Below, one piece after another: positions 1-19,005 of a stretch of DNA of 50,194 nucleotides. Under the pieces are notes generated by a model. That model was given only the letters and a program-made list of their open reading frames with translations, was not told the origin of the DNA and did not search any database. How positions within the stretch are numbered: the stretch's first letter is position 1; each line of letters starts with the position of its first letter. Position numbers and translations under genes: made by a program. Source of the stretch: Candidatus Peribacteria bacterium (lineage in GTDB: Bacteria; Patescibacteriota; Gracilibacteria; Peribacterales; Peribacteraceae); NCBI GenBank assembly GCA_903854455.1, contig CAINWJ010000010.1:1-50194 (forward strand), in the 5' to 3' direction.

Positions 1-1632
1 GACGAGCTCGCGTTTCTGGATCGTGTGTCGCCTGTGATTGGCGGCAAGAAATTATCGATCCCGCCGCCGACACTTTGTCCGGATGCCAGGCAGCAGCGCA
101 GGCTCACGTTCAGGAATGAGAGCACGTTCTACCACCGTGACTGCAGTCGCTGTGGCAAGCACATGATCTCACTCTATCCGGCGGATGCTCCGTGTCCGGT
201 CTACTGTGAGGCATGCTATTGGAATGGCACATGGGATCCCCTCGCATACGGCCGGGTGTTCGATCCGGCACAATCGTTCTTCGGGCAGTTCAATGAGCTC
301 CAGAAGACGGTTCCGCATCTCTACTTCTCCTCATCAGATTGCGAGAATAGCGAGTACTGCAATCATGCTGCGGGAATGAAGGACTGTTACCTCGTCCATG
401 GCTCCATGCATTCGCAGGACAGCTACTACGGAGTCCGGTACTTCCGCTGCCGCGATTGCTCGGACTGCCTCTTCATCAATGACTGCGAGCTCTGCTACGA
501 AGCGGTGAACTGCGACAACTGCTATGACCTGGCGTACGCATTTCACTGTCAGGATTGTCGCAGCAGCCGCTGGATCCGGCACTGTCACGGTTGTGACAAT
601 CTCCTGTTCTGCGTGAACCGCCGTCAGGCGCGGCATCAGATCCTGAACGTGCAGTATTCCGAGGAGGATTTTCAGCGACTCAGGAAGGAGATTCTTTCTT
701 CTCCGGACATATTGGCAATGCACATTGAACGGTACCGGGCACTGCTTCTGGCTTCGCCCGAGCCGTCCCGCATCGCCGATCAGGCTGAACAATCATCAGG
801 AAATTATCTTCGTCAGTGCAAGGATTGCCGATCCTGCTTCGATGTACAGAAGTGCCAGGATGTCACGTATGGGTACGACGTCGCGTCCATGGCTGACAGC
901 CGCGACATCTACTCGGTCTACGGTCCGGGCGAGCTCTGCTACGAGCTGTACTCGGCATCGATTGCCGTTCATCACACACTCTTCAGTCACGACTGCTGGC
1001 CGTGCGAGGATCTTCTGTACTGCGATCACTGCTTCGGCTGCAAGTACTGCTTCGGCTGTCTCGGGCTCCACAAGCATCAGTACTGCATTCTGAACAAGCA
1101 ATTCACGAAGGAGGAGTATGAACGATTGGTGCCGTTGATTGTTGATTCCATGAACAAGTTTGGCGAGTTCGGTGAATTCTTCCCTGCGCAGTGTTCACCG
1201 TTCGCGTACAACGAGACGTCAGCTCAGGAATACTTCCCGATGCCAATGGAAGAAGTGCTGAAGCATGGATGGCGGTGGCGCGATCAGATGGATGAGAAGC
1301 CGAAGGTCGAACGGACGATTCCCGCAACTCAATTGCCTGCATCCATTCAGCAGACGCCGGACGATATTCTCCATTGGGCAGTGGAATGCGAGGTCACGAA
1401 GCGCCCCTACAGGATTATCAAGCGTGAGCTGGAGTTCTACCGGAAAATGCAGATACCCGTGCCGCGCTTCCATCCCGATGAGCGACACAGGCGGCGGATG
1501 GCGATGCGCAATCCGCGCAAACTCTGGGATCGGACATGTGGGAAATGTGGGAAGGGGATCGCGACGACGTATTCGCCTGAGCGGCAGGAAAAGATTTACT
1601 GCGAGGAATGTTATCTGAAGGAGGTATACTGA
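1..1632 (+). CDS. Cys-rich zinc-ribbon/Cys-repeat protein, array paralog P1 (5' end cut by window edge)
   Basis: Frame 1 is open from base 1 (DELAFLDRVSPVIGGKK...) and aligns with residues about 17 onward of the other paralogs, so the ORF-track start at 25 is internal. The C-terminus ...RTCGKCGKGIATTYSPERQEKIYCEECYLKEVY is shared with P2-P8. Confidence 0.85.
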   Translation, partial: DELAFLDRVSPVIGGKKLSIPPPTLCPDARQQRRLTFRNESTFYHRDCSRCGKHMISLYPADAPCPVYCEACYWNGTWDPLAYGRVFDPAQSFFGQFNELQKTVPHLYFSSSDCENSEYCNHAAGMKDCYLVHGSMHSQDSYYGVRYFRCRDCSDCLFINDCELCYEAVNCDNCYDLAYAFHCQDCRSSRWIRHCHGCDNLLFCVNRRQARHQILNVQYSEEDFQRLRKEILSSPDILAMHIERYRALLLASPEPSRIADQAEQSSGNYLRQCKDCRSCFDVQKCQDVTYGYDVASMADSRDIYSVYGPGELCYELYSASIAVHHTLFSHDCWPCEDLLYCDHCFGCKYCFGCLGLHKHQYCILNKQFTKEEYERLVPLIVDSMNKFGEFGEFFPAQCSPFAYNETSAQEYFPMPMEEVLKHGWRWRDQMDEKPKVERTIPATQLPASIQQTPDDILHWAVECEVTKRPYRIIKRELEFYRKMQIPVPRFHPDERHRRRMAMRNPRKLWDRTCGKCGKGIATTYSPERQEKIYCEECYLKEVY

Positions 1633-1638
1633 CCTCCA

Positions 1639-3321
1639 ATGCAGCGATCTTGCCCCCTCTGCTCGGCCCCCTTCCAGATCACGGACGCGGATCTTGCGTT
1701 CTATGAAAAGGTGAGTCCAAGCTTCAAAGGCAAGAAGGAGCTGATCCCGCCGCCGACCTTGTGTCCGGATTGCCGCGTACAGCGGAGAATGGCATGGCGA
1801 AATGATCGGGTGTTCTATCATAGAAAGTGCGATCTCACCGGAACGGACATTCTCTCCATGTACGCTCCGGATGCGCGGTTTCCCGTCTACAAGCCGGAGG
1901 CATGGCATGGGGACGGATGGGATGATCTGGCACACGGCCGGGACTTTGATTTCTCCAGAACGTTCTTCGATCAGTGGGCTGACCTCCGCGACTGCTCGCC
2001 GCACTGGGCTATGGCACTCTCTAGCTGCGAGAACAGCGACTACTGTAACTACTGCACGGATGAAAAGAACTGCTACATGGATATTGCGGCAGAGCAGAAT
2101 GAGAACTGCTACTACGATCATTTTACGAAAACGTCGAAGGACTGCGTTGACAGTAATTTCGCTTACCACTCCACGCTCTGCTACGAGGTTATTCAGTGCT
2201 ACGGCTGCTACGGCTGCCGCTGGTCACAGTACCTGGAAAACTGCAGCGACTGCACGATGTGCTTCGACTGCAAGGGGTGCCGTCACTGCCTTCTCTGCAC
2301 GAACCAGCGCAACAAGGAATACTGCATCATGAATGAGCAAGTGACGAAGGAAGTCTATGAAGCGAGGTTGGAGGAGCTCCGGCTGTCATCGCATCAGGCA
2401 GTTGAACATCTGAAGACAGTGTGGAAGGACCGCCTGCTCAGCCAGGGCATATTTCGGGACATGTACCTCCTAAACTGCGAAGGATGTTCCGGTAACGACA
2501 TCCAGACATCCAAGAACTGCCTCTCGTGCTTCAATGCAGTTGACTGTGAGGACTGCTCGTACCTCTACGATATCCTCAATGCCAAGGACTGCGCGGACAT
2601 GAACTACTCACTCTACGATCCCGAAGCGGACTATGAAGTTATCTCGACGGTCGGCCTCAAGCACTCGGCGTTCTACCTTACCGGACCGTACAACTCCTAC
2701 TGCTTCTACTCCGAAATGCTCAAGAGTTGCAGCCATTGCTTTGGCTGTGTCGCCCTCAAAAAACGGCAGCACTGTATCCTCAACAAGCAGTACACGAAGG
2801 AGGAGTACGAGGAGCTGTTTCCGAGAATCATCCATCACATGCGCAAGGCGGGGGAGTGGGGCGAGTTCTTCCCCGTGGTTCTATCGCCGCACGGGTACAA
2901 CGAGACTGTGGCAATGGATCATTTCCCACTGACGAAGAGCCAGGCTAAGGAGCGTGGTTGGCGCTGGAAAGACCGCACCGAGGAGACGGCGAAGATAACG
3001 AAGATCATCCCAGCCACGCAATTACCGGATGCCATCCAGGATATTCCAGACGACATTCTCCATTGGGCCATCAACTGTGAGGTGACCGGAAAGCCCTACA
3101 AGATCATCAAGCAGGAACTTGAGTACTATCGACGCATGCAGATTCCGGTTCCCCGTCTCCATCCCGATGAACGACATCGACGAAGGGTGGTTCTCAGTAA
3201 TCCACGCAAGCTCTGGAATCGCACATGCGGGAAATGTCAGAGGCCGATTACGACCAGTTATTCATCGGAGAGACCGGAAAAAGTATTATGCGAGGCGTGC
3301 TATCTGAAGGAAGTGTACTGA
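1639..3321 (+). CDS. Cys-rich zinc-ribbon/Cys-repeat protein, array paralog P2
   Basis: 560-aa ORF. N-terminus is CPLCSAPFQITDADLAFYEKVSP..KKELIPPPTLCPDCRVQRR. There are two Cys-repeat blocks, each ending in a ..YCI(L/M)N.Q.TKE.YE motif. The C-terminal PYKIIKQELEYYRRMQIPVPRLHPDERHRRR..CGKC..CEACY is collinear with all the other paralogs. Confidence 0.9.
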   Translation: MQRSCPLCSAPFQITDADLAFYEKVSPSFKGKKELIPPPTLCPDCRVQRRMAWRNDRVFYHRKCDLTGTDILSMYAPDARFPVYKPEAWHGDGWDDLAHGRDFDFSRTFFDQWADLRDCSPHWAMALSSCENSDYCNYCTDEKNCYMDIAAEQNENCYYDHFTKTSKDCVDSNFAYHSTLCYEVIQCYGCYGCRWSQYLENCSDCTMCFDCKGCRHCLLCTNQRNKEYCIMNEQVTKEVYEARLEELRLSSHQAVEHLKTVWKDRLLSQGIFRDMYLLNCEGCSGNDIQTSKNCLSCFNAVDCEDCSYLYDILNAKDCADMNYSLYDPEADYEVISTVGLKHSAFYLTGPYNSYCFYSEMLKSCSHCFGCVALKKRQHCILNKQYTKEEYEELFPRIIHHMRKAGEWGEFFPVVLSPHGYNETVAMDHFPLTKSQAKERGWRWKDRTEETAKITKIIPATQLPDAIQDIPDDILHWAINCEVTGKPYKIIKQELEYYRRMQIPVPRLHPDERHRRRVVLSNPRKLWNRTCGKCQRPITTSYSSERPEKVLCEACYLKEVY

Positions 3322-3360
3322 AGAGAAAGGCTGTAGCGCGTGCTTATAGCGCGCGGTCAC

Positions 3361-3406: not shown

Positions 3407-3443
3407 CGACCGCAGGCCCGAGGCCAGCGCTACGCACTTGTGC

Positions 3444-3449
3444 TACAAT
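3444..3449 (+). promoter_or_regulatory. -10-like TACAAT 8 nt upstream of the trmB-like start (possible leaderless transcript)
   Basis: tgcTACAATcctccactATG. No purine-rich SD between the box and the ATG at 3458. Confidence 0.3.
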
Positions 3450-3457
3450 CCTCCACT

Positions 3458-4249
3458 ATGTTCCGCCGTCTCTCCGAGCTCCTCAGCCTGGCAGGTCTCA
3501 GTGACGATGAAGCACGGTTGTACCTACTGCTCCTGAAATCGGGCAATGCGAGTGCGCCTGAGCTTCAGGCGGCATCTTCAATGAATGTGATGACGGTCTA
3601 CCGCACACTCAAGCGTCTGGAAGATCGTGGTTTGCTCGCAGCATCACCGGTCAATCGCAAAGAGAAGATGTACAAGGCATTGTCTCTGAATGCATTGGTA
3701 AAGAAATTGGAATCGGATGAACGGAAGATTCGGAAATTGCAGGCGAATCTCCGGAAGATGACGCCGTTCCTCAGATATCTCCCAACGGAATCCGAGAAGA
3801 TTTCAGATGAGGATCCGGTTGAATTGCGCGAAGGGCTGGATGCGTTCCGCGAGGAGTATTTGAAGTTGCCCGATCTCTGTACATCGGAATTCCAGTGCCT
3901 GGGGTCCATGCAGAACTATTGGAGAATCGCCGGTATGTCAGACGAGGCACCGGAAGAGATAGGATTCAGGAACAAGCGCTTCAGAAGCGGCATCTTCTCG
4001 TTAACACTCAACACGCCGTCTCCTGAGGCTGAGGTCTTCGCCAAGCGTGATTCGCGTGAGCTTCGGCGGACCAGGATTACCGCTGCATTGCCTATCAAGC
4101 GCGATTACATGGCGTTCACCGACGACCGTGTTTGTCATTTCCTTTGTGATCCTGAGAATCCTCAAGTGATCATCTTCCGTCAGCCGGAGCTTCTGGCGAT
4201 GTACCGTCGACAGTTCCGTTCGATCTGGGATGCGGGAGTGGTGGCGTAG
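3458..4249 (+). CDS. TrmB-family winged-HTH transcriptional regulator (copy 1)
   Basis: MFRRLSELLSLAGLSDDEARLYLLLLKSGNASAPELQAASSMNVMTVYRTLKRLEDRGLL matches the TrmB N-terminal wHTH pattern. I use the ATG at 3458 rather than the ORF-track start at 3386, because the upstream part crosses the hairpin region. Confidence 0.8.
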   Translation: MFRRLSELLSLAGLSDDEARLYLLLLKSGNASAPELQAASSMNVMTVYRTLKRLEDRGLLAASPVNRKEKMYKALSLNALVKKLESDERKIRKLQANLRKMTPFLRYLPTESEKISDEDPVELREGLDAFREEYLKLPDLCTSEFQCLGSMQNYWRIAGMSDEAPEEIGFRNKRFRSGIFSLTLNTPSPEAEVFAKRDSRELRRTRITAALPIKRDYMAFTDDRVCHFLCDPENPQVIIFRQPELLAMYRRQFRSIWDAGVVA

Positions 4250-4368: not shown

Positions 4369-4487
4369 AATGCCTCATTCGGGCATTATTATCACATCAT
4401 CCTGAGATAATTCATTTCCCTCTTTTGGCTTGAGGCTAAGCTTTTCAATTTTTCTAGGAGGCTAGTTGCCTCGCTCTCTCAAAAGCC

Positions 4488-4493
4488 TACAAT
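4488..4493 (+). promoter_or_regulatory. -10-like TACAAT 6 nt upstream of the GTG start of P3
   Basis: ccTACAATtttgtcGTGccctca. No SD in between. Confidence 0.25.
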
Positions 4494-4499
4494 TTTGTC

Positions 4500-6182
4500 G
4501 TGCCCTCATGTGCTCTCTGCCAATCGGCATTCGAAGTTTCCAAGGAGGATCTCGCTTTCCTCGAAAAAATCTCTCCTGATTTCGCAGGCAAGAAGGAGCT
4601 CATCCCGCCTCCGATCTTTTGCCCCGACTGCCGTCAGCAGCGTCGGCTCCTCTGGCGCAATGAATATTGTTTGTATCGACGGACGTGTGATGGTTGCAAG
4701 AAATCGATCATCTCCCAGTACTCCACAGACAAGCCGTTCACCGTGTATTGCCACGAGTGCTGGTGGTCCGACAGGTGGGATCCTCTGAGTCACGGACAAC
4801 CGTTCGATTTCAATCGAACATTTTTTGATCAATTCCGGGCATTGCAACTGAAGGTTCCCAGGATGGCGCTCAATGCCATCTCCAACGAGAACTCGGAGTA
4901 TGTGCACCTCTCCGGATACTGCAAGAACTGCTACCTCCTCTTCGCTGCGGAGTTCGATGAAGACTGTCTCTACGGCAACCAAGTCATCAAATCTCTCGGC
5001 TGCATGGACGCGCTCGATTGCTTCGAGTCCCGGTACTGTTACGAGGTCACGGACGTCGAAAAGTCTCACGATCTCCTGTTTTCCAGCAACTGCAGCAACT
5101 GCTCGGGGTCCATGTTCCTCTTCGACTGCAAAGGATGTTCGGACTGCCTGCTCTCGACGAATCTCCGCAAGAAGACGAACGTCATCCGAAACAAGCAGTG
5201 CAGCCCGGAGGAATTCAGGCGCGAGCGGGAAGCGTTGATGATGCGGATTGCGAAGGGGGAGTTATCGCAGATCAAGGACGAATTTAAGCAGCTGAAGGCG
5301 CAGAGTATTCACAGGTCGCAGGAAGCCGTGAACTGTGAAGCCTCGACTGGCGATTACCTCAAGAACTGCAAGAACGTGCGTCACTGTTTCGATCTCTCCT
5401 ACGGTGAAGACAGTGCATTCGTTTACACCGGTTTCAAGGTGAAGGATCTGATGGACGTGTGCCACACGACGGAGGCGGAGCTGGGGTATGAGGGGATCAG
5501 CTTCGGCTATGGATCGTACAATGCCATCTGCACGCATGGCTCCTGGAGCGGCAAGAACCTCCTCTACTGCGATACGGCACAGGCCGGCTGCTCCGATCTC
5601 TTCGGCTGCGTGATGATGAAGCAGCAGAAGCACTGCATTCTGAATAAGCAGTATTCCAGGGAGGAGTACGAGCAGCTTGTTGCGAAGATTATTACTCACA
5701 TGCGCGCCTCCGGTGAATTCGGATTATTCTTTGCGCCAGAATGTGCGCCGTTTGGGTACAACGAGACGACGGCGAATATTTATTTTCCAATGACGCGGGA
5801 AGCAGCGGTTGCCAAAGGATTCCCCTGGAAAGATGGCGAGGAGGAGATGCCGGCGGTAGCCAAGGTGATCAACGCCGTCGATCTTCCTTCAGACATTCGC
5901 GAAGTCCCGGACGACATCCTCGGCTGGGCCGTCACCTGCGAAGCGACCAAGCGACCATTTAGAGTCGTCAAGCAGGAGCTGCAGTTCTACCGTGACCATG
6001 GTTTGCCCATTCCACACTTTCATCCTGACGAGCGGCACCGGCGGAGGATGGCGCTTAGGAATCCGCGGAAGGTGTGGTCACGGACATGCATGAAGTGTCA
6101 GAAGGACATCGAAACAACCTATTCTCCAGAGAGGAAGGAGAAGGTGTTTTGTGAGGAGTGCTATCTGGGGGAAGTGTATTGA
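4500..6182 (+). CDS. Cys-rich zinc-ribbon/Cys-repeat protein, array paralog P3 (GTG start)
   Basis: (M)PSCALCQSAFEVSKEDLAFLEKISPDFAGKKELIPPPIFCPDCRQQRR... is collinear with the family. The N-terminal module keeps all four distal Cys (RTCDGCKK...VYCHECWW). Confidence 0.9.
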   Translation: MPSCALCQSAFEVSKEDLAFLEKISPDFAGKKELIPPPIFCPDCRQQRRLLWRNEYCLYRRTCDGCKKSIISQYSTDKPFTVYCHECWWSDRWDPLSHGQPFDFNRTFFDQFRALQLKVPRMALNAISNENSEYVHLSGYCKNCYLLFAAEFDEDCLYGNQVIKSLGCMDALDCFESRYCYEVTDVEKSHDLLFSSNCSNCSGSMFLFDCKGCSDCLLSTNLRKKTNVIRNKQCSPEEFRREREALMMRIAKGELSQIKDEFKQLKAQSIHRSQEAVNCEASTGDYLKNCKNVRHCFDLSYGEDSAFVYTGFKVKDLMDVCHTTEAELGYEGISFGYGSYNAICTHGSWSGKNLLYCDTAQAGCSDLFGCVMMKQQKHCILNKQYSREEYEQLVAKIITHMRASGEFGLFFAPECAPFGYNETTANIYFPMTREAAVAKGFPWKDGEEEMPAVAKVINAVDLPSDIREVPDDILGWAVTCEATKRPFRVVKQELQFYRDHGLPIPHFHPDERHRRRMALRNPRKVWSRTCMKCQKDIETTYSPERKEKVFCEECYLGEVY

Positions 6183-6271
6183 TCAGGCTGCGGATAAGGC
6201 GTTTGCATAAATACATAAATAAGTATACAATATAACTTGATATAAACAGCATATTTCAGCGCTTACTTCCT

Positions 6272-7558
6272 ATGGTTACTATCAAAAAAATAAATAAGAA
6301 GCACGCACGGCATGTCATCGAGCAATCGATGGCTGCTTTGGGTTTGGAGATGAACATGAAAACTGATCCGGCGATTATTGAGAGTCTCCTTCGCGAGATG
6401 AGGCTTGATGACTTTAAAACAGACTTTGCTCCAATGAAGAAATTTTTCGCAGACGCTCTTGCTAAACCGCAAAGCTTACGACCGATGTTTGAAAGTATTA
6501 AGCAGGGGATCGTGAATAAGCATCCTGCAATTGTTGAGTTTGCTGAACTGGCTCTGTCGAAGAAATGGTTTGCATCTTCTGCTCATATTCAGAGAGCGGC
6601 TCATGTCGCTTATGTTCTCGAGGCGATGACTGCAGCGATGTGCAATAGCCACAAGTTCTTCCTTGAAGCTGAAGATTATTTACGTGCGCAAGAAGTGATG
6701 TGTGGCTTAGATCATGAGCACTTATTACGTTCATTCTTGAGCATGCAACGCGTGACTCATAGCGTTTTTGAAACCATGAAGGCCCTATCTCTTGACCCTG
6801 CAATGATTATTCCGAGAACCCGTTGCGGTTTGGAGAATGCAAGAATAGGCAAGGTGCAGCTCCGTGAACTCAGCAGGAAAGAAAAGCTTAATTTTGTTGA
6901 GCGCAAGCTATTATCGACTGCCGAAAAAAATGACCTTGAACATTCACTTAAGTTAGTTGGTATCAATTTGTTTGAGGCAGGTATCACCGAATACAAAAAA
7001 GGATTTCAGGATAATGCCTTTTGTGCACATGCTCTAAATGAAGTCATCCAGAAAACTCCTCCCGCTGTTCTATTTAAAGCTCGTCATATCATACCTCTTT
7101 ACTCTTCGCAGTCTTTCTATGAGACTCTCTGCACGAGCGATAATCATTTTCCCGTGTTCGGTTTTAGTCAGGATTGGATGAGTGTGTACGTCACTTGGAA
7201 TTTAGCATTTGTGTTGGGCGATCTTGATGAATTGGATTTACTCATTCCGAAATTACTTATTCCGTCAGTTCTCAATGCAAAAAGTGAGCATTTTCTCGGT
7301 GCAAGAGGCATTGCTCTTTGGCTCTCCATTAACAATTTCCTATTCAGATTGAGGGATCATGCAGGCACGGTTTCAGGACCGGAGAACAAACAAGAGATGG
7401 CAAATGCTTGGGGTGCAATTAACAAAAAATATGCCACCGCCTTTATGCAAAATGAGACACATGAAACACGACAGCATTTCTTAAGTGAATTTCACCACTT
7501 CTTCTCCTTTCCCGTTTTCCATTTTTTAAAACTTCTGGGCGATTTCGCAATTCGTTGA
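6272..7558 (+). CDS. hypothetical protein (428 aa) in an AT-rich island, no motif recognised
   Basis: Long ORF in a stretch that is visibly more AT-rich than the flanks. No antisense competitor of similar length. No family recognised by eye. Confidence 0.6.
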   Translation: MVTIKKINKKHARHVIEQSMAALGLEMNMKTDPAIIESLLREMRLDDFKTDFAPMKKFFADALAKPQSLRPMFESIKQGIVNKHPAIVEFAELALSKKWFASSAHIQRAAHVAYVLEAMTAAMCNSHKFFLEAEDYLRAQEVMCGLDHEHLLRSFLSMQRVTHSVFETMKALSLDPAMIIPRTRCGLENARIGKVQLRELSRKEKLNFVERKLLSTAEKNDLEHSLKLVGINLFEAGITEYKKGFQDNAFCAHALNEVIQKTPPAVLFKARHIIPLYSSQSFYETLCTSDNHFPVFGFSQDWMSVYVTWNLAFVLGDLDELDLLIPKLLIPSVLNAKSEHFLGARGIALWLSINNFLFRLRDHAGTVSGPENKQEMANAWGAINKKYATAFMQNETHETRQHFLSEFHHFFSFPVFHFLKLLGDFAIR

Positions 7559-7573
7559 ACAATATTTTTCCGT

Positions 7574-7975
7574 TCAGCGGAATTTATCATACGGGAAGAA
7601 TTTTTTTTCATGCTCTTCTCCAAGAACGTGCGTTGAATGCTTAATTGCACAGGAGTAAACCTCCGTTTGATTGGTAACAGCTTTTGTCCATGCGGTGAGT
7701 GCGTTGCCGTATCCGCAGTACACACATGAAGCTTTTTGCCATATTGTTAGCTTATGTAGATCCCAACGATCTAAAACCCAATAATCTTTAAACCGAATTT
7801 TAGGAATGTCGTAGATAGAAAAATAAATCAATTGATAGAGGTAAAAGTGCAGATGAATGATGGGTGCGAGAAGCAGCAAACTCCAAATAGCAATGACGCC
7901 GACAAATTGGAGAAATATATTCCTCTTATGGAGCGTTTTGTGACGTGCCAAGACGACGAAGCGTTCGTACAGCAT
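7574..7975 (-). CDS. small hypothetical membrane protein with a C-terminal Cys/His motif
   Basis: 133-aa ORF with a hydrophobic N-terminal half (FLQFVGVIAIWSLLLLAPIIHLHFYLYQLIYFSIY) followed by CVYCGYGNAL...YSCAIKH. It lies in the same AT-rich island, convergent with 6272-7558. Confidence 0.5.
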   Translation of the reverse strand: MLYERFVVLARHKTLHKRNIFLQFVGVIAIWSLLLLAPIIHLHFYLYQLIYFSIYDIPKIRFKDYWVLDRWDLHKLTIWQKASCVYCGYGNALTAWTKAVTNQTEVYSCAIKHSTHVLGEEHEKKFFPYDKFR

Positions 7976-8033
7976 CGTAATATAGTAGCAGAAATCCTGA
8001 TTTATCTCAAGCGTTCTGGTCTAGCCGGAGCCA

Positions 8034-10690: not shown

Positions 10691-10697
10691 TGCCATC

Positions 10698-10747
10698 GTA
10701 GAGACGCCCCGCCGGGGCGTCTCTACCTGCGGGGCAGCAGCCCCGCG
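10698..10747. repeat. 29-nt perfect palindrome GTAGAGACGCCCCGCCGGGGCGTCTCTAC followed by hairpin GCGGGGC-agca-GCCCCGC
   Basis: Palindrome at 10698-10726 and second hairpin at 10727-10747, immediately after the P4 stop. Related copies lie at 14228-14292, 16006-16098 and 42842-42864. Confidence 0.8.
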
Positions 10748-10763
10748 CTACATTCATTCATTT

Positions 10764-12419: not shown

Positions 12420-12429
12420 TTCATTCTCC

Positions 12430-12445
12430 GCGGAAAGCATTCCGC
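12430..12445 (+). terminator. short hairpin GCGGAA-agca-TTCCGC after P5
   Basis: Read directly. It has the same AGCA loop as the GCGGGGC-agca-GCCCCGC hairpins. No T-tract follows. Confidence 0.25.
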
Positions 12446-12462
12446 TCCCTTGTCAGAAAGTT

Positions 12463-14133
12463 ATGACCATTTGCACTCATTGCTCATCGGCATTCGGAAT
12501 CACGGATCAGGATCTGAAATTCTACGACGACGTATCGCCGGTGTTTGCCGGGAAGAAAGAATTGATCCCGCCGCCAACTCTCTGTCCATCCTGCCGCATG
12601 CAACGACGACTGATGTTCCGGAATGATCTCTGTTTGTATCACCGCAAATCGGATCTCACCGGCAAGGCGATGATTTCCATGTACGCACAGGACAAACCGT
12701 ACAAGGTTTACGACCAGGACGAGTGGTGGAGCGATCAGTGGGATGAGCTCTCGTATGGTCGTGACTTCGATTTCTCGCGGACGTTCACCGAGCAGTTTAG
12801 GGAGCTCAACCTGGCAGTTCCGCATCAGGGGCTCTTCACGACGAACGCGGAGAATAGCTACTACACCAACCATTCACTCAACACGAAGAACTGCTACCTG
12901 ATCGCCGGTGCGACGAATCTGGAGGATTGCCTCTTCGGCCGCTTCGTTATCGGTGGCAACGATGTGGTCGACGGCTTGTCGCTCTATGGGTGCAAGTGGT
13001 GTTACGAAGGCATCGCTTCTCAACAGTGCTACCAGTGCATGTTTTTCCGCCATTCGCGCGATTGCAGCAGCTGCCTCGTGATCGACGATTGCCAGTCCTG
13101 CAAGAATTGCTGCATGTGCTTTGGGCTCAAGAGCAAAGAGTATTGTTATTTGAATGAGCAGCTGACCAAAGATGAGTATGAGCAGCGTATTCAGAAGCAT
13201 TTGCCGCTGACGCCGGATGGCATCAATGTGATGCGCAGGCAATTGTCTGAACTTTCGATCAAGTTGCCGCACCGCGCACTTCATGTATTCAGCAGCGAAG
13301 ATTGCACCGGTGATATGGTGTTCAACAGTCAGCAATGCGAAGATTGTTATGACTGTACAGACTCTCAGGATTGCAAGTATGTGAGCAATGCGCCGAAAAG
13401 CAAAAACAGTCAGGATGCGAATTACGCCGCGCCGGATGGCGTGGAGTGGTGCTACAACGTCAACTCGAGTGTCGGCTCACAGCGCGTCATGGGGGTGTTC
13501 CTCTGCTGGTACGGTTCCGATGAGTACTATGTTCGCGAGTGTCACCGTAGCTCGAATCTTTTTGGTTGCATCAGTATGCGACACAAGGAGTACTGCATCT
13601 TAAACAAGCAGTATTCCAAAGAAGAATATGAAACATTAGTGCCGAAGATCATTGAGCACATGCGGAAAACAGGGGAGTGGGGCGATTACCTCCATCCGAG
13701 TCTTTCGACTATGGGGTACAACGAAACGCTTGCTCAGGAATATTTTCCGATTATGAAAGAGGAAGCGATTGCGAACGGTTGGCAGTGGCACGACGAAGAG
13801 GATTCCAAGGAGCAGTACCTGGGTCCCGATCATAAGATTCCGGAGAGCATTGCGGATGTTCCCGATGACATCACCAAGCAGATTCTGCGGTGCGAGGTCA
13901 CCGGCAAACCGTACAAGGTCATCCCGCAGGAGCTGAAGTTTTACCGTTCCATGGGGATCCCGATTCCGCGGAAGTGTCCCGAGCAGCGGCACAAGGAACG
14001 TCTGGCAATGCGGAATCCGAGGAGATTGTGGAAGCGGGAATGTGCAAAATGTCAGAAAGAAATAGAGACGACGTACCATCCTTCGCGACCTGAAACTGTT
14101 TATTGTGAATCATGTTATCTCAACAATTTATGA
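12463..14133 (+). CDS. Cys-rich zinc-ribbon/Cys-repeat protein, array paralog P6
   Basis: 556 aa, collinear with the family. The N-terminal module is the most degenerate (RKSDLTGKAMIS...KVYDQDEWW). Confidence 0.9.
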   Translation: MTICTHCSSAFGITDQDLKFYDDVSPVFAGKKELIPPPTLCPSCRMQRRLMFRNDLCLYHRKSDLTGKAMISMYAQDKPYKVYDQDEWWSDQWDELSYGRDFDFSRTFTEQFRELNLAVPHQGLFTTNAENSYYTNHSLNTKNCYLIAGATNLEDCLFGRFVIGGNDVVDGLSLYGCKWCYEGIASQQCYQCMFFRHSRDCSSCLVIDDCQSCKNCCMCFGLKSKEYCYLNEQLTKDEYEQRIQKHLPLTPDGINVMRRQLSELSIKLPHRALHVFSSEDCTGDMVFNSQQCEDCYDCTDSQDCKYVSNAPKSKNSQDANYAAPDGVEWCYNVNSSVGSQRVMGVFLCWYGSDEYYVRECHRSSNLFGCISMRHKEYCILNKQYSKEEYETLVPKIIEHMRKTGEWGDYLHPSLSTMGYNETLAQEYFPIMKEEAIANGWQWHDEEDSKEQYLGPDHKIPESIADVPDDITKQILRCEVTGKPYKVIPQELKFYRSMGIPIPRKCPEQRHKERLAMRNPRRLWKRECAKCQKEIETTYHPSRPETVYCESCYLNNL

Positions 14134-14165
14134 CAACTATAGTCAGGTCGCTTCGGACGGCAGGC

Positions 14166-14225
14166 GCACCCGAGAGGACGGAGAGTGTGTATTGCGAACA
14201 ATGTTATTTGGCCTCCGTCTATTAA
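14166..14225 (+). pseudogene. fossil 3' end (last ~19 codons plus stop) of a Cys-rich paralog
   Basis: gca ccc gag agg acg gag agt gtg tat tgc gaa caa tgt tat ttg gcc tcc gtc tat taa translates to APERTESVYCEQCYLASVY*. This is nearly the same as the real P7 end (SPERPESVYCEQCYLAAVY*, 15940-15998). It lies 30 nt after the P6 stop with no gene body attached. Confidence 0.75.
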
Positions 14226-14227
14226 TG

Positions 14228-14292
14228 CTGCGGGGCAGCAGCCCCGCGTTTATCTCCATTCATTATCTCGAAGACGCCCCGGCGGGGCGTCT
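14228..14292. repeat. junction repeat unit: GCGGGGC-agca-GCCCCGC hairpin, spacer, then AGACGCCCCGGCGGGGCGTCT palindrome
   Basis: Near-identical to 16034-16098. Confidence 0.8.
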
Positions 14293-14309
14293 CTACACCA
14301 CCCAACGTA

Positions 14310-15998
14310 ATGCCCACCTGCCCTCACTGCCAATCGGCGTTCGAGATTGCCAAAGACGATCTCGCGTTCTATGCAAAGGTCTCACCGATCTTCAATGGAA
14401 AGAAGGAGCTGATTCCGCCGCCGACGTTGTGTCCGGACTGCAGAATGCAGAAGCGCATGTTGTGGAGGAACGAGCGCAGCATTCATCGGTCTTCCTGTCG
14501 TATCTGCAAGCGATCAATGATATCGCAATATGTCCCCGAGTCGCCACATGTTGCGGTTTGCGCAGACTGTTTCTGGTCCAAACGGTGCGATCCACTCGCC
14601 GCCGGACGTCCCTTCGATCAGTCGCATTCGTTTTTCTCCCAGTTCCTGGAATTGCTTCAGACTGCGCCGCTTGTCGCGCTGATCAACACAAATGCACAGG
14701 CCTCGGAATACTGCCATCGGATCTACAACGGCCGGAACAACTACCTTTCATTCATCGCGCTCTATGAACCGGAGAACCTGCTTCACACCTACCACACCGT
14801 CGCGTGCAAAGACTGCACGGATGTCAGCGTCAATCATCACTGTGAACTCTGCTACGAGACCGTGGATGCCGATGACTCCTACAATTGCCGGTACTCGAGA
14901 CGTATCCGCAACTGCCGCGATTCCGCTTTTCTGGAAGATTGCATCGGGTGCAGCAATTGCATCGGGTGCAAGAACCTCCACCAGCGTCAGAACTGTCTTT
15001 TTAATGAGCAGAGGACTCCCGCTGACATTGAGGCATTCAGGGCATCCATGGAGATGGAAACCGTATCCGGCATTAGCTCTCTCCGGGGGCAGGCGGAAGA
15101 ATTCTTCCGGATGCTCCCGAACCGACCAGCTTTGAGGGTAAATTGCGAGAGCGTCTCGGGGGCATACGTCACCAATTGCAAGAATTGTACGGACGTGTAC
15201 GACCTGTTCGAGTGTGAGGAGCTGCGACATTCTTCGCAAGCGGAACGAAGCCATCATTGCATGGATTGCTACGGTATGAACTCCGCGTCCTTCTGCTATG
15301 AAGGCATTACGTACGGCGTGGACGGATGCCAGAACCTCCTCTTCTCTGCCGCGACTTTGAGTGGATGCCACAACCTTCTGTACTGCTACGATTGTTACGC
15401 CGGGACGCATGATTGTTTCGGATGTGTGGGGCTCATCAAACAGAGCTACTGCATCCTCAACAAGCAGTACTCCAAGGAAGAATATGAGGAATTGGTACCG
15501 AGGATTATTGAACGGATGCGACAGGCCGGTGAGTGGGGACAATTTTTCCCCGTGCACCTGAGTCCGTTTGCCTACAACGAATCCGTTGCGCAGGACTATT
15601 TTCCGCTTACGAAGGAAGATGCTGGAAAGTTCGGTTGGCAGTGGCGGGATCAAAAAGATGATATTCCGAAAGTCGAACGGATTGTTTCCGGTGCGCAGTT
15701 GCCAGATTCGATCGACGAGACTCCGGACGATATTCTCAATTGGGCCATCGAGTGTGAGGTGACGAAGCGTCCGTTCAAAATTATCCGTCAGGAACTCGAT
15801 TTCCATCGGAGGATGAGGCTACCTCTTCCCCGGCTGCATCCTGATGAACGTTATCGGAGAAGAATGGCACAGAGAAATCCACGGCACCTCTGGAAGCGGA
15901 AATGCGGGAAGTGCGGTACGGAGATCGAGACGACGTATTCCCCGGAACGGCCGGAGAGCGTGTATTGCGAACAATGTTATCTTGCTGCGGTTTATTGA
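14310..15998 (+). CDS. Cys-rich zinc-ribbon/Cys-repeat protein, array paralog P7
   Basis: 562 aa. The N-terminal module has all four distal Cys (SSCRICKRSMIS...VAVCADCFW). The C-terminal module is of the HPDERYRRR type. Confidence 0.9.
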   Translation: MPTCPHCQSAFEIAKDDLAFYAKVSPIFNGKKELIPPPTLCPDCRMQKRMLWRNERSIHRSSCRICKRSMISQYVPESPHVAVCADCFWSKRCDPLAAGRPFDQSHSFFSQFLELLQTAPLVALINTNAQASEYCHRIYNGRNNYLSFIALYEPENLLHTYHTVACKDCTDVSVNHHCELCYETVDADDSYNCRYSRRIRNCRDSAFLEDCIGCSNCIGCKNLHQRQNCLFNEQRTPADIEAFRASMEMETVSGISSLRGQAEEFFRMLPNRPALRVNCESVSGAYVTNCKNCTDVYDLFECEELRHSSQAERSHHCMDCYGMNSASFCYEGITYGVDGCQNLLFSAATLSGCHNLLYCYDCYAGTHDCFGCVGLIKQSYCILNKQYSKEEYEELVPRIIERMRQAGEWGQFFPVHLSPFAYNESVAQDYFPLTKEDAGKFGWQWRDQKDDIPKVERIVSGAQLPDSIDETPDDILNWAIECEVTKRPFKIIRQELDFHRRMRLPLPRLHPDERYRRRMAQRNPRHLWKRKCGKCGTEIETTYSPERPESVYCEQCYLAAVY

Positions 15999-16005
15999 TT
16001 TTTTT

Positions 16006-16098
16006 GTAGAGACGCCCGATCGGGCGTCTCTACCTGCGGGGCAGCAGCCCCGCGTTTATCTTCATTCATTATCTCGAAGACGCCCCGGCGGGGCGTCT
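16006..16098. repeat. junction repeat unit: palindrome GTAGAGACGCCCGATCGGGCGTCTCTAC, GCGGGGC-agca-GCCCCGC hairpin, and second palindrome AGACGCCCCGGCGGGGCGTCT
   Basis: Elements at 16006-16033, 16034-16054 and 16078-16098, read directly. Confidence 0.8.
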
Positions 16099-16115
16099 CT
16101 ACACCACCCAACGTT

Positions 16116-17771
16116 ATGCCCACCTGCCCCCACTGCCAATCGGCATTCGAGATCACGCCTGATGATCTTGCATTTTATGAGAAGGTATCACCAATATTTA
16201 ATGGTAAGAAAGAATTGATTCCACCGCCGACGCTGTGTCCGTCTTGTCGTCAGCAGCGACGACTGGCATTCCGAAATGAACGCTGCCTCTACCATCGTAA
16301 ATGTGATTTGACTGGCAGACAGATGGTCACGATGTACTCGCCGGACAAGCAGTACAAAATTTACGATCAGGAGGCATGGTGGAGCGACAACTGGGATCCG
16401 CTGGCTTCCGGTCGTGAGTACGATCCAGCCAAATCGTTCTTTGCCCAGTTCGATGAACTCTTCCACAGCGCACCGCGGATCAGTCTCATCAACATGGAGC
16501 ACGAGAACGCGGAGTACTGCAATTTCGCGCTCAAGAACAAGAATGCGTATCTGCTCTTCACGTCGGCAGAGTGTGAAGATTCTTTCTATATGAACCGGTC
16601 ATGGAGAAGTAAGAACTGTGCGGATTGCTCCAGTCTGGAAGATGGTGAGCTGTGTTACGAGGTCATCAATTCCGATCATTGCTACAACTGTCAGTACCTC
16701 CAAAATTGTGCCAACTGCTCGGATTGTTACCTCGGATACAACCTTCACGGGTGCAAGAATTGCTTTGCGTGCTACGGTTTGACGAATGCGTCCTACTGCA
16801 TCGGCAACAAGAAGTTTGAGAAGGAGGAATATGAGCGGACCGTTGCCTTGCTCAGGCAGGATCTTCGGTCGGTGCGGAATAATTTCGAGGAGCAGAAGCG
16901 GACGCAGCCGCGGAAGTACATGGACTGCATCAACGCTGACGGTTGCACAGGAAATGCGATCAGTCATTCCAAGCACGCATTGAATTGTTTCGAAGTGATG
17001 AACGTGGAGGACTGCAACTATGCCTGCAATGCGACATTCATGAAGGATGCGTACGACATCGACAACGATGATCATTCCGAACTCGTCTACGAAGCAGTCG
17101 GGAGCGAAACCAATTCCATGCATGCGTTCAACGACATCTGTTGGTTCAACCGTGAAGTGTTGTATTCCAGCCTCTGCTTCCGCTGCAAGAACTGTTTCGG
17201 GTGCATCGGGCTCAGGCACAAGCAATACTGCATCCTCAATAAGCAGTACACGAAAGAGGAGTACGAGAAACTGGTGCCGAAGATCATTGAACGCATGAGG
17301 AAGGATAAGGAGTGGGGTGAATTTTTCCCGGTCAGCATTTCTCCGTTCGGCTACAACGAGACGATGGCGCAGGAGTTAAATCCACTGACGAAGGACCAGG
17401 TTCTGGCACTGGGATGGAAGTGGTTTGAAGATGATAATTCGAAGGATCAGTACCTGGGTCCGTTGTACGAAATCCCCGATGCCATCGCCGATGTTCCCGA
17501 TGACATCACGAAGCAGATTTTGCGCTGCTCCGTCACCGGCAAGCCGTACAAAATCATCCCGCAGGAATTGAAATTCTATCGGGACCTGAACATTCCGATC
17601 CCGCGGAAATGCCCTGATCAAAGGCACAAGGAGCGCATCGCCTTGCGGAATCCGAGGAAGTTGTGGGATCGGCAGTGTGCCAAGTGCCGGAAGGCGATTG
17701 TAACCAGTTATTCTCCGGAGAGACCGGAGCAAGTGTTGTGTGAGGAGTGTTATTTGAGAGAAGTGTACTAA
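16116..17771 (+). CDS. Cys-rich zinc-ribbon/Cys-repeat protein, array paralog P8
   Basis: 551 aa. The first ~13 codons are nearly identical in DNA to P7. The N-terminal module is degenerate (RKCDLTGRQMVT...KIYDQEAWW). The C-terminal module is of the PRKCPDQRHKER type. Confidence 0.9.
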   Translation: MPTCPHCQSAFEITPDDLAFYEKVSPIFNGKKELIPPPTLCPSCRQQRRLAFRNERCLYHRKCDLTGRQMVTMYSPDKQYKIYDQEAWWSDNWDPLASGREYDPAKSFFAQFDELFHSAPRISLINMEHENAEYCNFALKNKNAYLLFTSAECEDSFYMNRSWRSKNCADCSSLEDGELCYEVINSDHCYNCQYLQNCANCSDCYLGYNLHGCKNCFACYGLTNASYCIGNKKFEKEEYERTVALLRQDLRSVRNNFEEQKRTQPRKYMDCINADGCTGNAISHSKHALNCFEVMNVEDCNYACNATFMKDAYDIDNDDHSELVYEAVGSETNSMHAFNDICWFNREVLYSSLCFRCKNCFGCIGLRHKQYCILNKQYTKEEYEKLVPKIIERMRKDKEWGEFFPVSISPFGYNETMAQELNPLTKDQVLALGWKWFEDDNSKDQYLGPLYEIPDAIADVPDDITKQILRCSVTGKPYKIIPQELKFYRDLNIPIPRKCPDQRHKERIALRNPRKLWDRQCAKCRKAIVTSYSPERPEQVLCEECYLREVY

Positions 17772-18223
17772 TCTCTTACCTCCTCTGTCACAACAATCCC
17801 TCGTTCTCTTGCGATACGCAATACTTCGTCTAGAACATGTCGTGTTACACAATGATGCCTATCGGTATGGTGTTCTTGGTTCTGAGCATCAACATGTATG
17901 TGTAAGTATTCTTCATCGGCTGACTCTTCTTCCTGCGAAATGGAGAAGTAGCGTGTTTCTGCTGTTGGCGATCGATCGTTTCGCACGGTGCTACTGGGAA
18001 CACTTTGAATACATTCAGGGTTGGCATCGCTTACAAGAAATATTTTTTTGAGGAGCAGGGCAACAGACTCTTTTATGCTTAGGACTGCCTCATCGGAGCC
18101 AATTAATCCATATCCAATCGTGATAATGGTCAAGCCATGAGCTCTCTCTGCGACTATTCCAGGGACGTTTGATTGCATAGGATATGCGAGTGTGGTTGCA
18201 TTTTTTGTTGTAGCCAACACCAC
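17768..18223 (-). CDS. hypothetical protein (151 aa), no motif recognised
   Basis: It is the only sizeable ORF in the 17.8-18.2 kb gap and is convergent with P8. No family recognised, and the true start is uncertain. Confidence 0.35.
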   Translation of the reverse strand: MVLATTKNATTLAYPMQSNVPGIVAERAHGLTIITIGYGLIGSDEAVLSIKESVALLLKKIFLVSDANPECIQSVPSSTVRNDRSPTAETRYFSISQEEESADEEYLHIHVDAQNQEHHTDRHHCVTRHVLDEVLRIARERGIVVTEEVRD

Positions 18224-18234
18224 ACCACTGTCGC

Positions 18235-18240
18235 TATAAT
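18235..18240 (+). promoter_or_regulatory. -10 TATAAT 6 nt upstream of the trmB-like copy 3 start (possible leaderless transcript)
   Basis: tcgcTATAATgactacATG. Confidence 0.3.
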
Positions 18241-18246
18241 GACTAC

Positions 18247-19005
18247 ATGTCCGCCTCCCTCTTCGAAGAACTGGGTCTGAGCCCCAACGAAGCCAAGATC
18301 TACGACACGCTCATCACGTACGGCGGATCGGGGGTTTCGACGATCGCGCTGCGGGCAAAAGTGCATCGCAGCAACGCCTACGACGCACTCCGACGGCTCA
18401 TCGAGAAAGGGATGGTTCACGAGGTATTGGGGCAGCGGGAGACCATCTACGAACCCGTGGATCCGGTGAAGTTCAAGGAGCTACTGGCCGAGAAGATGCA
18501 GAAGTTCGAGGATGCGCTGCCGCAGATGGCACGGCACTTCCTCTCGCACCGGACAGCCGAGCGAGTCTCGGTCTACCGCGGGCTCGAGGGTGTCAAGAAC
18601 TACATGCGATTGGCGCTTCAGACCGGCGAAGACATCTTTACTCTTGGCGGGAAGTGCGCATGGCTGGATCCTCGTCTGAAATCATTCACGGAACATTTCT
18701 CGAAGGAGATGCGCAAGCGGAAAATGCAGAAACTGAGCCTCTTCGATGTGTCAGTGAAGGATCAGTGCCCCGCATCGATGCTACGAACCGTGGCCACGCA
18801 GTGGAAGTTTTTGCCGGAAGGGCATGCCACGCACTCCGCGGTTGATGTGTTTGGTGGGTACGTGGTGACGTTTACCGGAATGGATGTGCAGAAGCTTGGC
18901 GATGATCTGACACTGTTCGTGCTTGCAAGCGAGGATTTGGCGGAGGACTTCCGTGCGTGGTGGAATCTTATTTGGGATTTGATGCCGGGCAAAGCCAGGA
19001 AGTGA
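18247..19005 (+). CDS. TrmB-family winged-HTH transcriptional regulator (copy 3)
   Basis: MSASLFEELGLSPNEAKIYDTLITYGGSGVSTIALRAKVHRSNAYDALRRLIEKGMV. Confidence 0.8.
   Translation: MSASLFEELGLSPNEAKIYDTLITYGGSGVSTIALRAKVHRSNAYDALRRLIEKGMVHEVLGQRETIYEPVDPVKFKELLAEKMQKFEDALPQMARHFLSHRTAERVSVYRGLEGVKNYMRLALQTGEDIFTLGGKCAWLDPRLKSFTEHFSKEMRKRKMQKLSLFDVSVKDQCPASMLRTVATQWKFLPEGHATHSAVDVFGGYVVTFTGMDVQKLGDDLTLFVLASEDLAEDFRAWWNLIWDLMPGKARK

Follow-up and report, generated by a model that had tools for sequence, protein, structure and literature searches.

Homologues of VirD4-like type IV coupling proteins (T4CPs) are present in most genomes of the Patescibacteria, or candidate phyla radiation (CPR), and a recent survey counted 5,713 of them, only 148 of which were near virB4; they have been placed in no type IV secretion system (T4SS), and exaptation for another function was not ruled out by the authors (PMC12102498). 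The zf_Tbcl, zf_Tbcl_2 and TIGR04272 families consist of fingers of about 40 aa from small zinc-binding proteins of bacteria and archaea to which no role has been assigned, and members from Methanosarcina with the CxxC-x17-CxxC spacing were shown to bind zinc (PMC12704099). We analyzed a stretch of 50,194 nucleotides from a Candidatus Peribacteria bacterium (contig CAINWJ010000010.1), hereafter referred to as the window, to which all coordinates refer, and which begins with a tandem array of eight genes for Cys-rich proteins, accompanied by genes for three TrmB-like regulators (t1, t2 and t3). The array unit runs past position 19005 and includes the gene of a soluble VirD4-like ATPase (Table 1). 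The Cys-rich proteins carry a zinc-finger module at each end and a duplicated core in the middle. In Gracilibacteria-class lineages (Peribacteria, Peregrinibacteria, Gracilibacteria, Abawacabacteria), finger and core are fused and amplified into arrays, and in Microgenomates-type CPR a small zf_Tbcl protein, a 306-aa core and the ATPase are encoded by separate single-copy genes.

An earlier note, made from the sequence of this DNA, had reported eight collinear ORFs of about 550–560 aa with a shared end-to-end architecture and a strongly diverged middle, and this description was borne out by the ORF table and translations. The eight plus-strand ORFs encode proteins of 551–562 aa with 35–47 Cys each, which align end to end with a pairwise identity of 40–51%; by region, this figure is 52% for the N module, 36% for M1, 34% for M2, 46% for the linker (L) and 62% for the C module, the middle being the most diverged part. 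The count of 41 Cys given for the 561-aa copy is correct for paralog 4 and holds for paralog 2 as well, and none of the eight copies has a signal peptide or a hydrophobic stretch of transmembrane (TM) grade (maximum Kyte-Doolittle value over 19 residues no higher than 1.33), as had been claimed. In profile-profile comparisons of sub-alignments, residues 1–100 matched residues 470–560 (hhalign probability 99.6%, E 3.5e-24) and residues 100–250 matched residues 250–400 (99.7%, E 4e-26). Owing to these internal homologies, of the N with the C module and of M1 with M2, the architecture of the protein can be written as A-B-B'-L-A', in which A and A' stand for the homologous end modules, each a double treble-clef zinc finger of the Pfam zf_Tbcl/zf_Tbcl_2 type (CxxC-x17-CxxC), and B and B' (M1 and M2) for the two tandem copies of an acidic, solenoid-like domain rich in Cys. 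The ends are basic (net charge +2 for N and +7 for C) and the remainder is acidic (−6 for M1, −3 for M2 and −7 for L). No informative fusion domains were found in longer or shorter members of the family.

Each A module, of about 95 aa, combines two fingers of the treble-clef type with an Arg-rich helix that is strongly conserved (CPxCRxQRRxxxRN and PDERHRRRMALRNPRKLW). The CxxC-x17-CxxC spacing of the last finger is that of TIGR04272 and Pfam zf_Tbcl_2, and its residues C530, C533, C551 and C554 (paralog 2 numbering) are 96–98% conserved across 213 copies. The full-length window copies remained under the cut-offs of zf_Tbcl_2 (17.9 vs 27 bits) and TIGR04272 (14.9 vs 36 bits) in their C-terminal matches, a stand-alone homologue of the end module exceeded that of zf_Tbcl (PF13451; 32.5 vs 24 bits), and several family members are already annotated with precomputed PF13451 or PF23477 matches. 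A search of PDB with sequence profiles returned only a weak LIM-finger-like match to the last 30 residues (E 0.02). Co-variation of Cys was computed on 471 non-redundant family members: the Cys of the second N finger (columns 64, 67, 85 and 88) are either all there or all missing (r = 0.98–0.99), and the first C finger likewise has its Cys (columns 480 and 508) jointly or not at all (r = 0.97). The ends decay in a complementary manner: in most copies, the N end retains its finger 1 and the C end its finger 2. The end-module Cys thus behave in the all-or-none fashion expected of real four-ligand zinc sites, which are predicted here from co-variation. The zinc ribbons pointed out in the earlier note are real and lie at the ends of the protein.

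The Cys of the core follow a different rule. Over more than 80 residues of M1 they are spaced exclusively by multiples of three (such lags about 3-fold enriched, other lags about 0.05-fold), the same period-3 pattern is found in M2 in a weaker form, and a 12-residue super-period is apparent at columns 145, 157, 169, 181, 193, 205, 217 and 229. The motif [N/S/C]-x-[D/N]-C recurs, and in stretches of the CxxCxxCxxC kind up to about 35% of the residues are Cys. Unlike the end-module sites, the core Cys columns are 12–88% occupied and their mutual correlation is mostly below r = 0.3; the replacing residue is mainly Ser, then Leu or Val. Conservation above 90% is limited to about 13 Cys, nine of them in the zinc sites of the end modules. 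Furthermore, a sub-family of about 490 aa from a lineage reading UGA as Gly keeps the domain with just 12 Cys: in locus L062 (code 25; 8170–21304 of that locus; L-numbers designate fetched comparison loci from other genomes or metagenome contigs), full-length copies alternate with such Cys-poor relatives, which lack both zinc-finger ends (family HMM positions 70–506). No pairwise Cys co-variation, such as would be expected of disulfide-rich secreted proteins, was found in the core. Since the core Cys are gained and lost independently, are replaced by Ser and are dispensable for the domain in Cys-poor relatives, they do not appear to be obligate metal ligands, and binding of metal or Fe-S by the many core Cys, one of the roles suggested in the earlier note, is unlikely. 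We infer that most of them serve as small, interchangeable residues of a single structural register, rather than as obligate ligands or disulfide partners, and that they mainly face inward in a tight repeat.

Over the whole protein, conservation is highest in the QYCILNKQYTKEEYE segment that closes M2, and a weaker copy of this segment closes M1; each half of the core ends in a conserved 'YCILNxQYxKEEY' helix. The AlphaFold2 model of full-length paralog 2 had a pLDDT of 86 and a pTM of 0.87, and the stand-alone core was modeled as four-residue strands joined by two-residue turns (period 6). No significant match was obtained with Foldseek for the full model against PDB and BFVD or for the stand-alone core against PDB, and all the weak matches were left-handed beta-helix proteins (E 0.01–1, the best at 0.01–0.1; TM below 0.2; rmsd above 12 Å). 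With matches at this level, the core is best described as solenoid-like, without a known relative. It had no match in Pfam, NCBIfam, PADLOC or the PDB sequence-profile search either, and the statement of the earlier note that the full-length protein could be assigned to no characterized family stands after searches of Pfam, NCBIfam, PADLOC and PDB sequences and the two Foldseek searches. The strict period-3 Cys/Ser register is an unusual repeat design, of structural interest by itself.

For the survey of gene neighbors, ORFs within 4 kb of family members were clustered over 79 loci, with the TrmB-like genes excluded and counted separately. Apart from shadow ORFs overlapping it, the only recurrent neighbor was the 747-aa ATPase, which was found beside the array in 24 of the 79 loci, nearly always on the same strand and immediately 3' to the last copy, from which it is separated by 4–100 bp. 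The N-terminal domain of this protein is DUF8128 (PF26449), and its P-loop domain, with a Walker A GKSGSGKS and a Walker B DEF, matched the Pfam families T4SS-DNA_transf (42.1 bits vs a cut-off of 20.1), TrwB_AAD_bind (25.8 vs 20.5), DUF87 and TraG-D_C; the match to the NCBIfam VirD4-like CD1115 model (E 3e-17) was far under the cut-off (62.6 vs 250 bits). No hydrophobic or TM segment was found in the ATPase, and no T4SS genes were found within the window. Its identity across Peribacteria and Peregrinibacteria (68–96%) is far higher than that of the Cys-rich genes, and a reciprocal scan with an ATPase profile showed that nearly all the Gracilibacteria-class ATPase loci in metagenome contigs carry adjoining Cys-rich copies. 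The ATPases group by lineage and by type of neighbor. Literature searches on the family, on CxxC-x17-CxxC and on PF26449 returned no description of the protein or of its link to an ATPase, and the array now offers candidate partners for the VirD4-like ATPases of this phylum.

In distant lineages the family is split into proteins of about 300 aa consisting of B-B' only (family HMM positions 107–409, 23–32 Cys) and proteins of about 100 aa consisting of an A module only, the latter adjoining the B-B' genes and the ATPase. The split finger and core genes adjoin the ATPase in L089, L090, L093, L104 and L161–L163, with flanks that differ in every locus. A search with the stand-alone core yielded 902 relatives of about 306 aa (56–75% identity), named from Levybacteria and 'Parcubacteria' metagenome-assembled genomes (MAGs), and the HMM of the stand-alone core matched the window paralogs at E values of 1e-43 to 1e-60. 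Three long contigs (65–776 kb) carry, in this order, a small zf_Tbcl gene, one or two core genes and a convergent DUF8128 ATPase gene, and the surroundings of this trio differ among the three. The shared neighborhood of finger, core and ATPase genes, together with the fusion of the first two, indicates a conserved unit in two CPR classes, in the manner of a 'Rosetta-stone' fusion. The naturally split version would be convenient for biochemistry.

The family is widely distributed. A word-indexed search returned more than 6,600 full-length relatives, all annotated as 'hypothetical', the best of them from Peribacteraceae, Peregrinibacteria and 'Patescibacteria group' MAGs. HMMER searches of 1.84 billion cluster representatives gave 5,254 clusters (50% identity) at E ≤1e-3 and 2,361 at E ≤1e-30; almost all of the 150 best matches listed were 540–580 aa long. 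A scan of one genome per species confirmed at least 574 places in Peribacteria, Peregrinibacteria, Gracilibacteria and Abawacabacteria, and seven loci yielded full-length copies only with UGA read as Gly. Same-strand tandem arrays of up to nine copies were common among the 78 fetched loci, and several arrays may occur in one genome (e.g., STB_185, which holds L015, L020 and L042). No match was found by tblastn against 50,697 phage records. The earlier note had called for a survey of copy number and synteny; the family proved not to be rare, being ubiquitous in one CPR class and split in another, and the survey brought to light the link to the ATPase, which that note had missed. The suggestion that array and regulators form an organized functional system is upheld, as the arrangement recurs and is not due to chance. 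CPR genomes are about 1 Mb in size, yet this class spends 1–2% or more of its DNA on up to a dozen copies.

Every paralog of the window is closer to a copy in another genome (60–87%) than to any other window copy (40–51%), and the duplications are therefore old. Paralogs 5, 6 and 8 are 85–87% identical to L015 copies, paralog 2 is 65–68% identical to copies in L076, L058 and L025, and paralog 3 is 61–63% identical to copies in L014, L017 and L012. For three ortholog pairs with L015, dN/dS was 0.05–0.07 overall and 0.02–0.13 in every domain (dS at least 1, near saturation), values at which diversifying selection was rejected for these pairs. The paralogs are under purifying selection. The L015 array is collinear with that of the window, and the ATPase of the same genome is 96% identical; nevertheless, two of the five shared slots hold non-orthologous copies (paralog 4, 50%; paralog 7, 40%), and L015 carries one copy more. 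Paralog 4 and its positional counterpart in L015 are 87% identical in the C module (93–97% in the last 80 residues) and 34–36% identical in the core, a contrast from which a recombination breakpoint can be located where the C module begins, and the 27-residue C-terminus relic after paralog 6 is a recombination scar. The swapped slots, the extra L015 copy, the breakpoint and the relic together show that cassettes are exchanged whole, with the conserved C module serving as a homology arm. The earlier note had also listed a polymorphic effector or immunity-like repertoire among the candidate roles: the age of the paralogs, their 60–87% orthologs and a dN/dS of about 0.06 weaken this idea, although cassettes are indeed replaced by recombination.

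All three regulators exceeded the Pfam TrmB (PF01978) cut-off of 25.6 bits, in agreement with their designation in the earlier note as TrmB-type winged helix-turn-helix (wHTH) proteins. They are alike only in this N-terminal domain (25–32% identity over 53–117 aa). The sugar-binding C-terminal domain of archaeal TrmB and TrmBL1 was not found in them, the NCBIfam models scoring 13–26 bits as against 500–650 and aligning only in the wHTH; their length (252–263 aa) is nearer to that of TrmBL2, with a weak PDB match (E 0.046). Genes of this type were present in 38 of the 79 loci, where the commonest arrangement was divergent and directly upstream of a copy (37 of 54 genes). They are absent from the split trios on the three long contigs and hence came with the expansion of the arrays. 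A −10-like GCTAYAAT box, read directly and partly present in the scan list, precedes the start codon of most array genes at a short distance; the boxes of t1, paralog 3, t3 and the ATPase gene suggest very short or leaderless 5' untranslated regions. GC-rich hairpins follow paralogs 4, 6 and 7, two of them with T-rich tails. The scan for consensus promoters and terminators as a whole gave no enrichment relative to shuffled sequences. No operator motif shared by the intergenic regions was found, the GC-rich palindromes being the only shared elements; as these also occur elsewhere in the window (35187 and 42843), they are likely to be genome-wide sequences similar to repetitive extragenic palindromes (REP) or terminators, not specific to the array. 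From these sequence signals, independent transcription of the cassettes is plausible.

We consider it plausible, if somewhat short of an even chance, that the Cys-rich proteins act with the ATPase, their ends docking and their cores giving specificity, and that the TrmB-like proteins choose among the cassettes. The Cys-rich proteins would be intracellular partners of a DUF8128/VirD4-like, hexameric-type ATPase. Their conserved basic zinc-finger ends would constitute a common docking surface, either to the motor or to the nucleic acid handled by it, and the variable acidic core would be the surface deciding specificity; each paralog would direct one shared motor to a different target, or would itself be a different client. 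The true zinc sites would be in the end modules, with core Cys acting mainly as inward-facing small residues. The diverse TrmB-like proteins would turn individual cassettes on and off, a form of switching suggested by the −10-like box that most copies possess and by the several terminator-like hairpins, and the repertoire would change by whole-cassette replacement through recombination in the conserved C module, purifying selection keeping the cassette types. More tentatively, it is possible, although we would not call it likely, that the zf_Tbcl protein, the Cys-lined B-B' solenoid and the soluble DUF8128/VirD4-like ATPase form an unrecognized three-component ATP-driven machine of the CPR, parts of which were fused and radiated as regulated, recombination-shuffled specificity subunits in the Gracilibacteria-class lineages. 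If so, a single motor would be directed anew to many different substrates, be they DNA, protein or molecules derived from the host, and the missing function of the 'orphan' coupling proteins of Patescibacteria would be supplied.

Several observations weigh against a partnership of this kind. The putative link between the Cys-rich proteins and the ATPase comes solely from gene neighborhood, and many arrays are distant from the ATPase, with several arrays and one ATPase per genome. In other CPR (L091–L158), the ATPase gene follows that of a 357-aa Sigma70_r4 and HARE-HTH protein in 40 loci and topA in 17, with ftsQ-, ftsW- and murG-like genes downstream and, in several loci, two tandem ATPase paralogs; these neighborhoods of sigma70-r4/HARE-HTH, topA and division genes contain no nearby Cys-rich gene. 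The ATPase may hence serve a general function, the link of the array to it being only positional. No nucleic-acid-binding or catalytic motif was identified. The structural models are also less certain for the core: confidence drops to a pLDDT of about 65–75 in parts of M1 and M2, and the stand-alone core was modeled with moderate confidence (pLDDT 77, pTM 0.52).

The basic, Arg-rich treble-clef fingers of the end modules would also suit stand-alone nucleic-acid binders, such as zinc-finger regulators, chromatin-like factors or RNA-binding factors, with cores binding ligands or proteins and with the ATPase as inherited synteny. Such a role would account for the arrays located far from the ATPase and for the housekeeping genes that accompany the ATPase in other CPR, and zinc binding is known for stand-alone CxxC-x17-CxxC proteins, which have also been considered in the context of transcription (PMC12704099). 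We nevertheless consider it unlikely, since finger, core and ATPase are the sole conserved element among loci with differing flanks, in a second CPR class too, same-strand gaps of 4–100 bp to the ATPase are usual, and most of the protein (M1, M2 and L) is acidic. A repertoire of effectors would place the ATPase in another light, with the Cys-rich proteins as type IV-like secretion cargo recognized through the basic C module and delivered to the hosts of these presumed epibionts. The effectors of Xanthomonas known as XVIPCD proteins share a common VirD4-binding domain. In having a variable core and, at the C terminus, a conserved module of positive charge, the Cys-rich proteins resemble such effectors, and the VirD4/TraD type of the ATPase, the turnover of cassettes and the presence of dedicated regulators would fit as well. 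Cargo of this kind seems quite unlikely to us, however: the ATPase has no TM anchor, the paralogs all have the same fold and contain neither a toxin nor an enzyme domain, effectors in an arms race would not typically show strong purifying selection or fall into old orthologous subfamilies, the core is single-copy and well conserved (56–75%) in Microgenomates-type genomes, and folded zinc-stabilized domains are generally poor secretion substrates. Moreover, the T4CP homologues of Patescibacteria are mostly not beside virB4 (PMC12102498).

The abundance of Cys invites a further explanation, in which the 35–47 Cys would serve a metal, thiol or redox function, as a metallothionein-like Zn/Fe/Cu buffer, an Fe-S scaffold or a redox sensor. 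The dense CxxCxxCxxC runs (about 35% Cys) are what such a function would call for, this anoxic-groundwater lineage has a Cys-rich proteome (PMC4736985), and a cysteine desulfurase-type gene is located at 25860–27320 of the window. We regard this function as improbable, because strict conservation is limited to some 13 Cys, of which nine belong to the end-module sites, the core Cys come and go independently as opposed to r = 0.97–0.99 at the true zinc sites, their replacement is mainly by Ser, then Leu or Val, the 12-Cys relatives retain the domain, and eight diverged paralogs and a motor ATPase would be unexpected for a buffer. A defense or conflict system has an equally small probability in our view; here the diversified cores would sense proteins of phages or hosts, or act as decoys for them, and would be coupled to an ATPase of the HerA/FtsK type, much as in Sir2-HerA-like systems. 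The arrays, the cassette swapping, the recombination scar and a low-GC insertion inside the array recall such systems, and PADLOC gave weak matches of the ATPase to mad8 (E 3e-12) and HerA models; on the other hand, the Cys-rich protein matched none of the PADLOC families (E ≤0.01), the module contains no nuclease, NADase or other effector domain, no phage homologues were found, and the module is not patchy, being ubiquitous and syntenic across whole classes and located in core-genome neighborhoods. A partnership of the Cys-rich proteins with the ATPase thus remains the reading that we favor.

The features of the array and its immediate surroundings are listed in Table 1. The array is broken by a low-GC island (6183–8033; 42% GC vs about 53%); part of its 428-aa ORF is kept in L015 at 74% nucleotide identity, and this ORF is probably outside the Cys-rich system. 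Scans with Rfam and for tRNAs found nothing inside the array. The other genes of the window fit a Peribacteria-type chromosome, with a mevalonate pathway, many glycosyltransferases and an MBOAT protein. The mevalonate/isoprenoid cluster (38071–47973), in agreement with reports for Peribacteria, encodes a thiolase, an HMG-CoA synthase-like protein, HMG-CoA reductase, GHMP kinases, diphosphomevalonate decarboxylase and undecaprenyl-diphosphate synthase; at 38071–38970, the minus strand encodes an unusual protein of 299 aa in which an OB-fold (ChsH2_C) is fused to a guanylate-kinase-like domain. A tRNA-Thr (GGT) is located at 24889–24963, and a 224-aa ORF with a weak Sigma70_r4_2 match (24297–24971) is probably mis-extended or spurious, because it overlaps this tRNA. 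Two ORFs of 1,028 aa (30625–33711) and 396 aa (23022–24212), with no match in Pfam or NCBIfam, lie among glycosyltransferase, MBOAT and PMT-like genes.

Table 1. Coordinates of the Cys-rich array, its regulators, the ATPase gene and associated elements
Feature	Position	Strand	Remarks
Cys-rich paralog 1	1-1632	+	5' cut by contig end; 543 aa visible, 40 Cys; family HMM score 662
Cys-rich paralog 2	1639-3321	+	560 aa, 41 Cys
Paralog 2, N zinc-finger module	1639-1932
Paralog 2, M1	1933-2388
Paralog 2, M2	2389-2832
Paralog 2, linker L	2833-3048
Paralog 2, C zinc-finger module	3049-3318
-10-like GCTAYAAT boxes	3440-3457, 4480-4499, 18225-18246, 19080-19100		about 7-40 nt before the starts of t1, paralog 3, t3 and the ATPase gene
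TrmB-like wHTH regulator t1	3458-4249	+	263 aa; Pfam TrmB 46.4 bits
Cys-rich paralog 3	4500-6182	+	560 aa, 36 Cys; second N-terminal treble clef (CxxC-x17-CxxC) intact
Intervening ORF	6272-7558	+	428 aa; inside low-GC island; no Pfam/NCBIfam match
Minus-strand ORF	7574-7975	-	133 aa; one TM segment; inside low-GC island
TrmB-like wHTH regulator t2	8034-8825	-	263 aa; divergent from paralog 4; Pfam TrmB 35.4 bits
Cys-rich paralog 4	9005-10690	+	561 aa, 41 Cys; mosaic relative to L015
Intergenic GC-rich hairpin element	10691-10763	+	GTAGAGACGCCCCGCCGGGGCGTCTCTAC then GCGGGGCAGCAGCCCCGC
Perfect GC-rich palindrome AGACGCCCCGSCGGGGCGTCT	10702-10722, 14272-14292, 16078-16098, 42843-42863
Perfect GC-rich palindrome GCGGGGCAGCAGCCCCGC	10729-10746, 14230-14247, 16036-16053, 35187-35204
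Cys-rich paralog 5	10764-12419	+	551 aa, 47 Cys; 87% ortholog in L015
Cys-rich paralog 6	12463-14133	+	556 aa, 35 Cys; 85% ortholog in L015
3'-end relic of another copy, ending in PERTESVYCEQCYLASVY and a stop	14109-14222	+	frame differs from paralog 6; family HMM positions 531-557, E 4e-6
Intergenic hairpin/terminator-like element	14227-14300	+	GCGGGGCAGCAGCCCCGC + TTTATCT, then AGACGCCCCGGCGGGGCGTCT
Cys-rich paralog 7	14310-15998	+	562 aa, 40 Cys; no close ortholog at matching L015 slot (40%)
Intergenic hairpin/terminator-like element	15999-16115	+	repeats as in the elements after paralogs 4 and 6
Cys-rich paralog 8	16116-17771	+	551 aa, 37 Cys; 86% ortholog in L015
Putative GTG-start ORF	17768-18223	-	151 aa; no family match
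Gap between paralog 8 and t3	17772-18246		475 bp; sole content is the minus-strand ORF
TrmB-like wHTH regulator t3	18247-19005	+	252 aa; directly upstream of the ATPase gene; Pfam TrmB 61.6 bits
Soluble ATPase	19127-21370	+	747 aa; N-terminal DUF8128, then VirD4/TraD/TrwB-type (FtsK/HerA superfamily) P-loop domain

The end modules, judged from their Cys spacing, which A and A' share with zf_Tbcl, zf_Tbcl_2 and TIGR04272, and from the stand-alone form that exceeds the zf_Tbcl threshold, appear to be members of these families or very close to them; they differ in that two fingers and an Arg-rich helix make up a module of about 95 aa, with which a 560-aa protein is capped at either end. The window ATPase is one of the orphan VirD4-like coupling-protein homologues of Patescibacteria, with a P-loop of the VirD4/TraD type, no virB4 beside it and a wide distribution in CPR; unlike these homologues as described, for which no partner was reported (PMC12102498), it is soluble, carries DUF8128 and is linked to finger and Cys-rich core genes, and it differs from VirD4, TraD and TrwB in having neither a membrane anchor nor a T4SS context. 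The large secreted Cys-rich proteins of Ca. Peribacter riflensis come from the same lineage and likewise have a high Cys content and clustered genes, but they are 580–3860 aa long, mostly with signal peptides, and pappalysin- or FG-GAP-like (PMC4736985); identity with them was rejected, as the family of about 560 aa has no signal peptide and is missing from the table of that study. Membership among metallothionein-like or Fe-S proteins was also rejected, since the core lacks conserved, co-varying sets of Cys ligands (columns 12–88% occupied, r < 0.3). The only structural neighbors of the B-B' core, through insignificant matches, are left-handed beta-helix proteins (such as LpxA/LpxD, GlmU and gamma-carbonic anhydrase); Pfam Hexapep gave no match in the core at E values up to 0.1–1, and the core has neither the hexapeptide signature nor the acyltransferase residues of these proteins, displaying instead the period-3 Cys/Ser register and the 12-residue super-period.

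The HsdS subunit of type I restriction-modification systems has two variable domains, each followed by a conserved helix, in a pseudo-twofold arrangement; its cassettes are shuffled, and it works with an ATP-driven motor. By analogy, the Cys-rich family may be viewed as a comparable design, likewise with two variable domains and a conserved helix, cassettes recombined in conserved segments, and a motor. There is no similarity of sequence or fold to HsdS, the module has no methyltransferase or nuclease and, unlike those of HsdS, the variable domains are unlikely to read DNA, because they are acidic. The B-B' core and the three-part module match nothing characterized and, although sequences of the family have long been public as 'hypothetical protein', they are new at the levels of both protein family and gene module.

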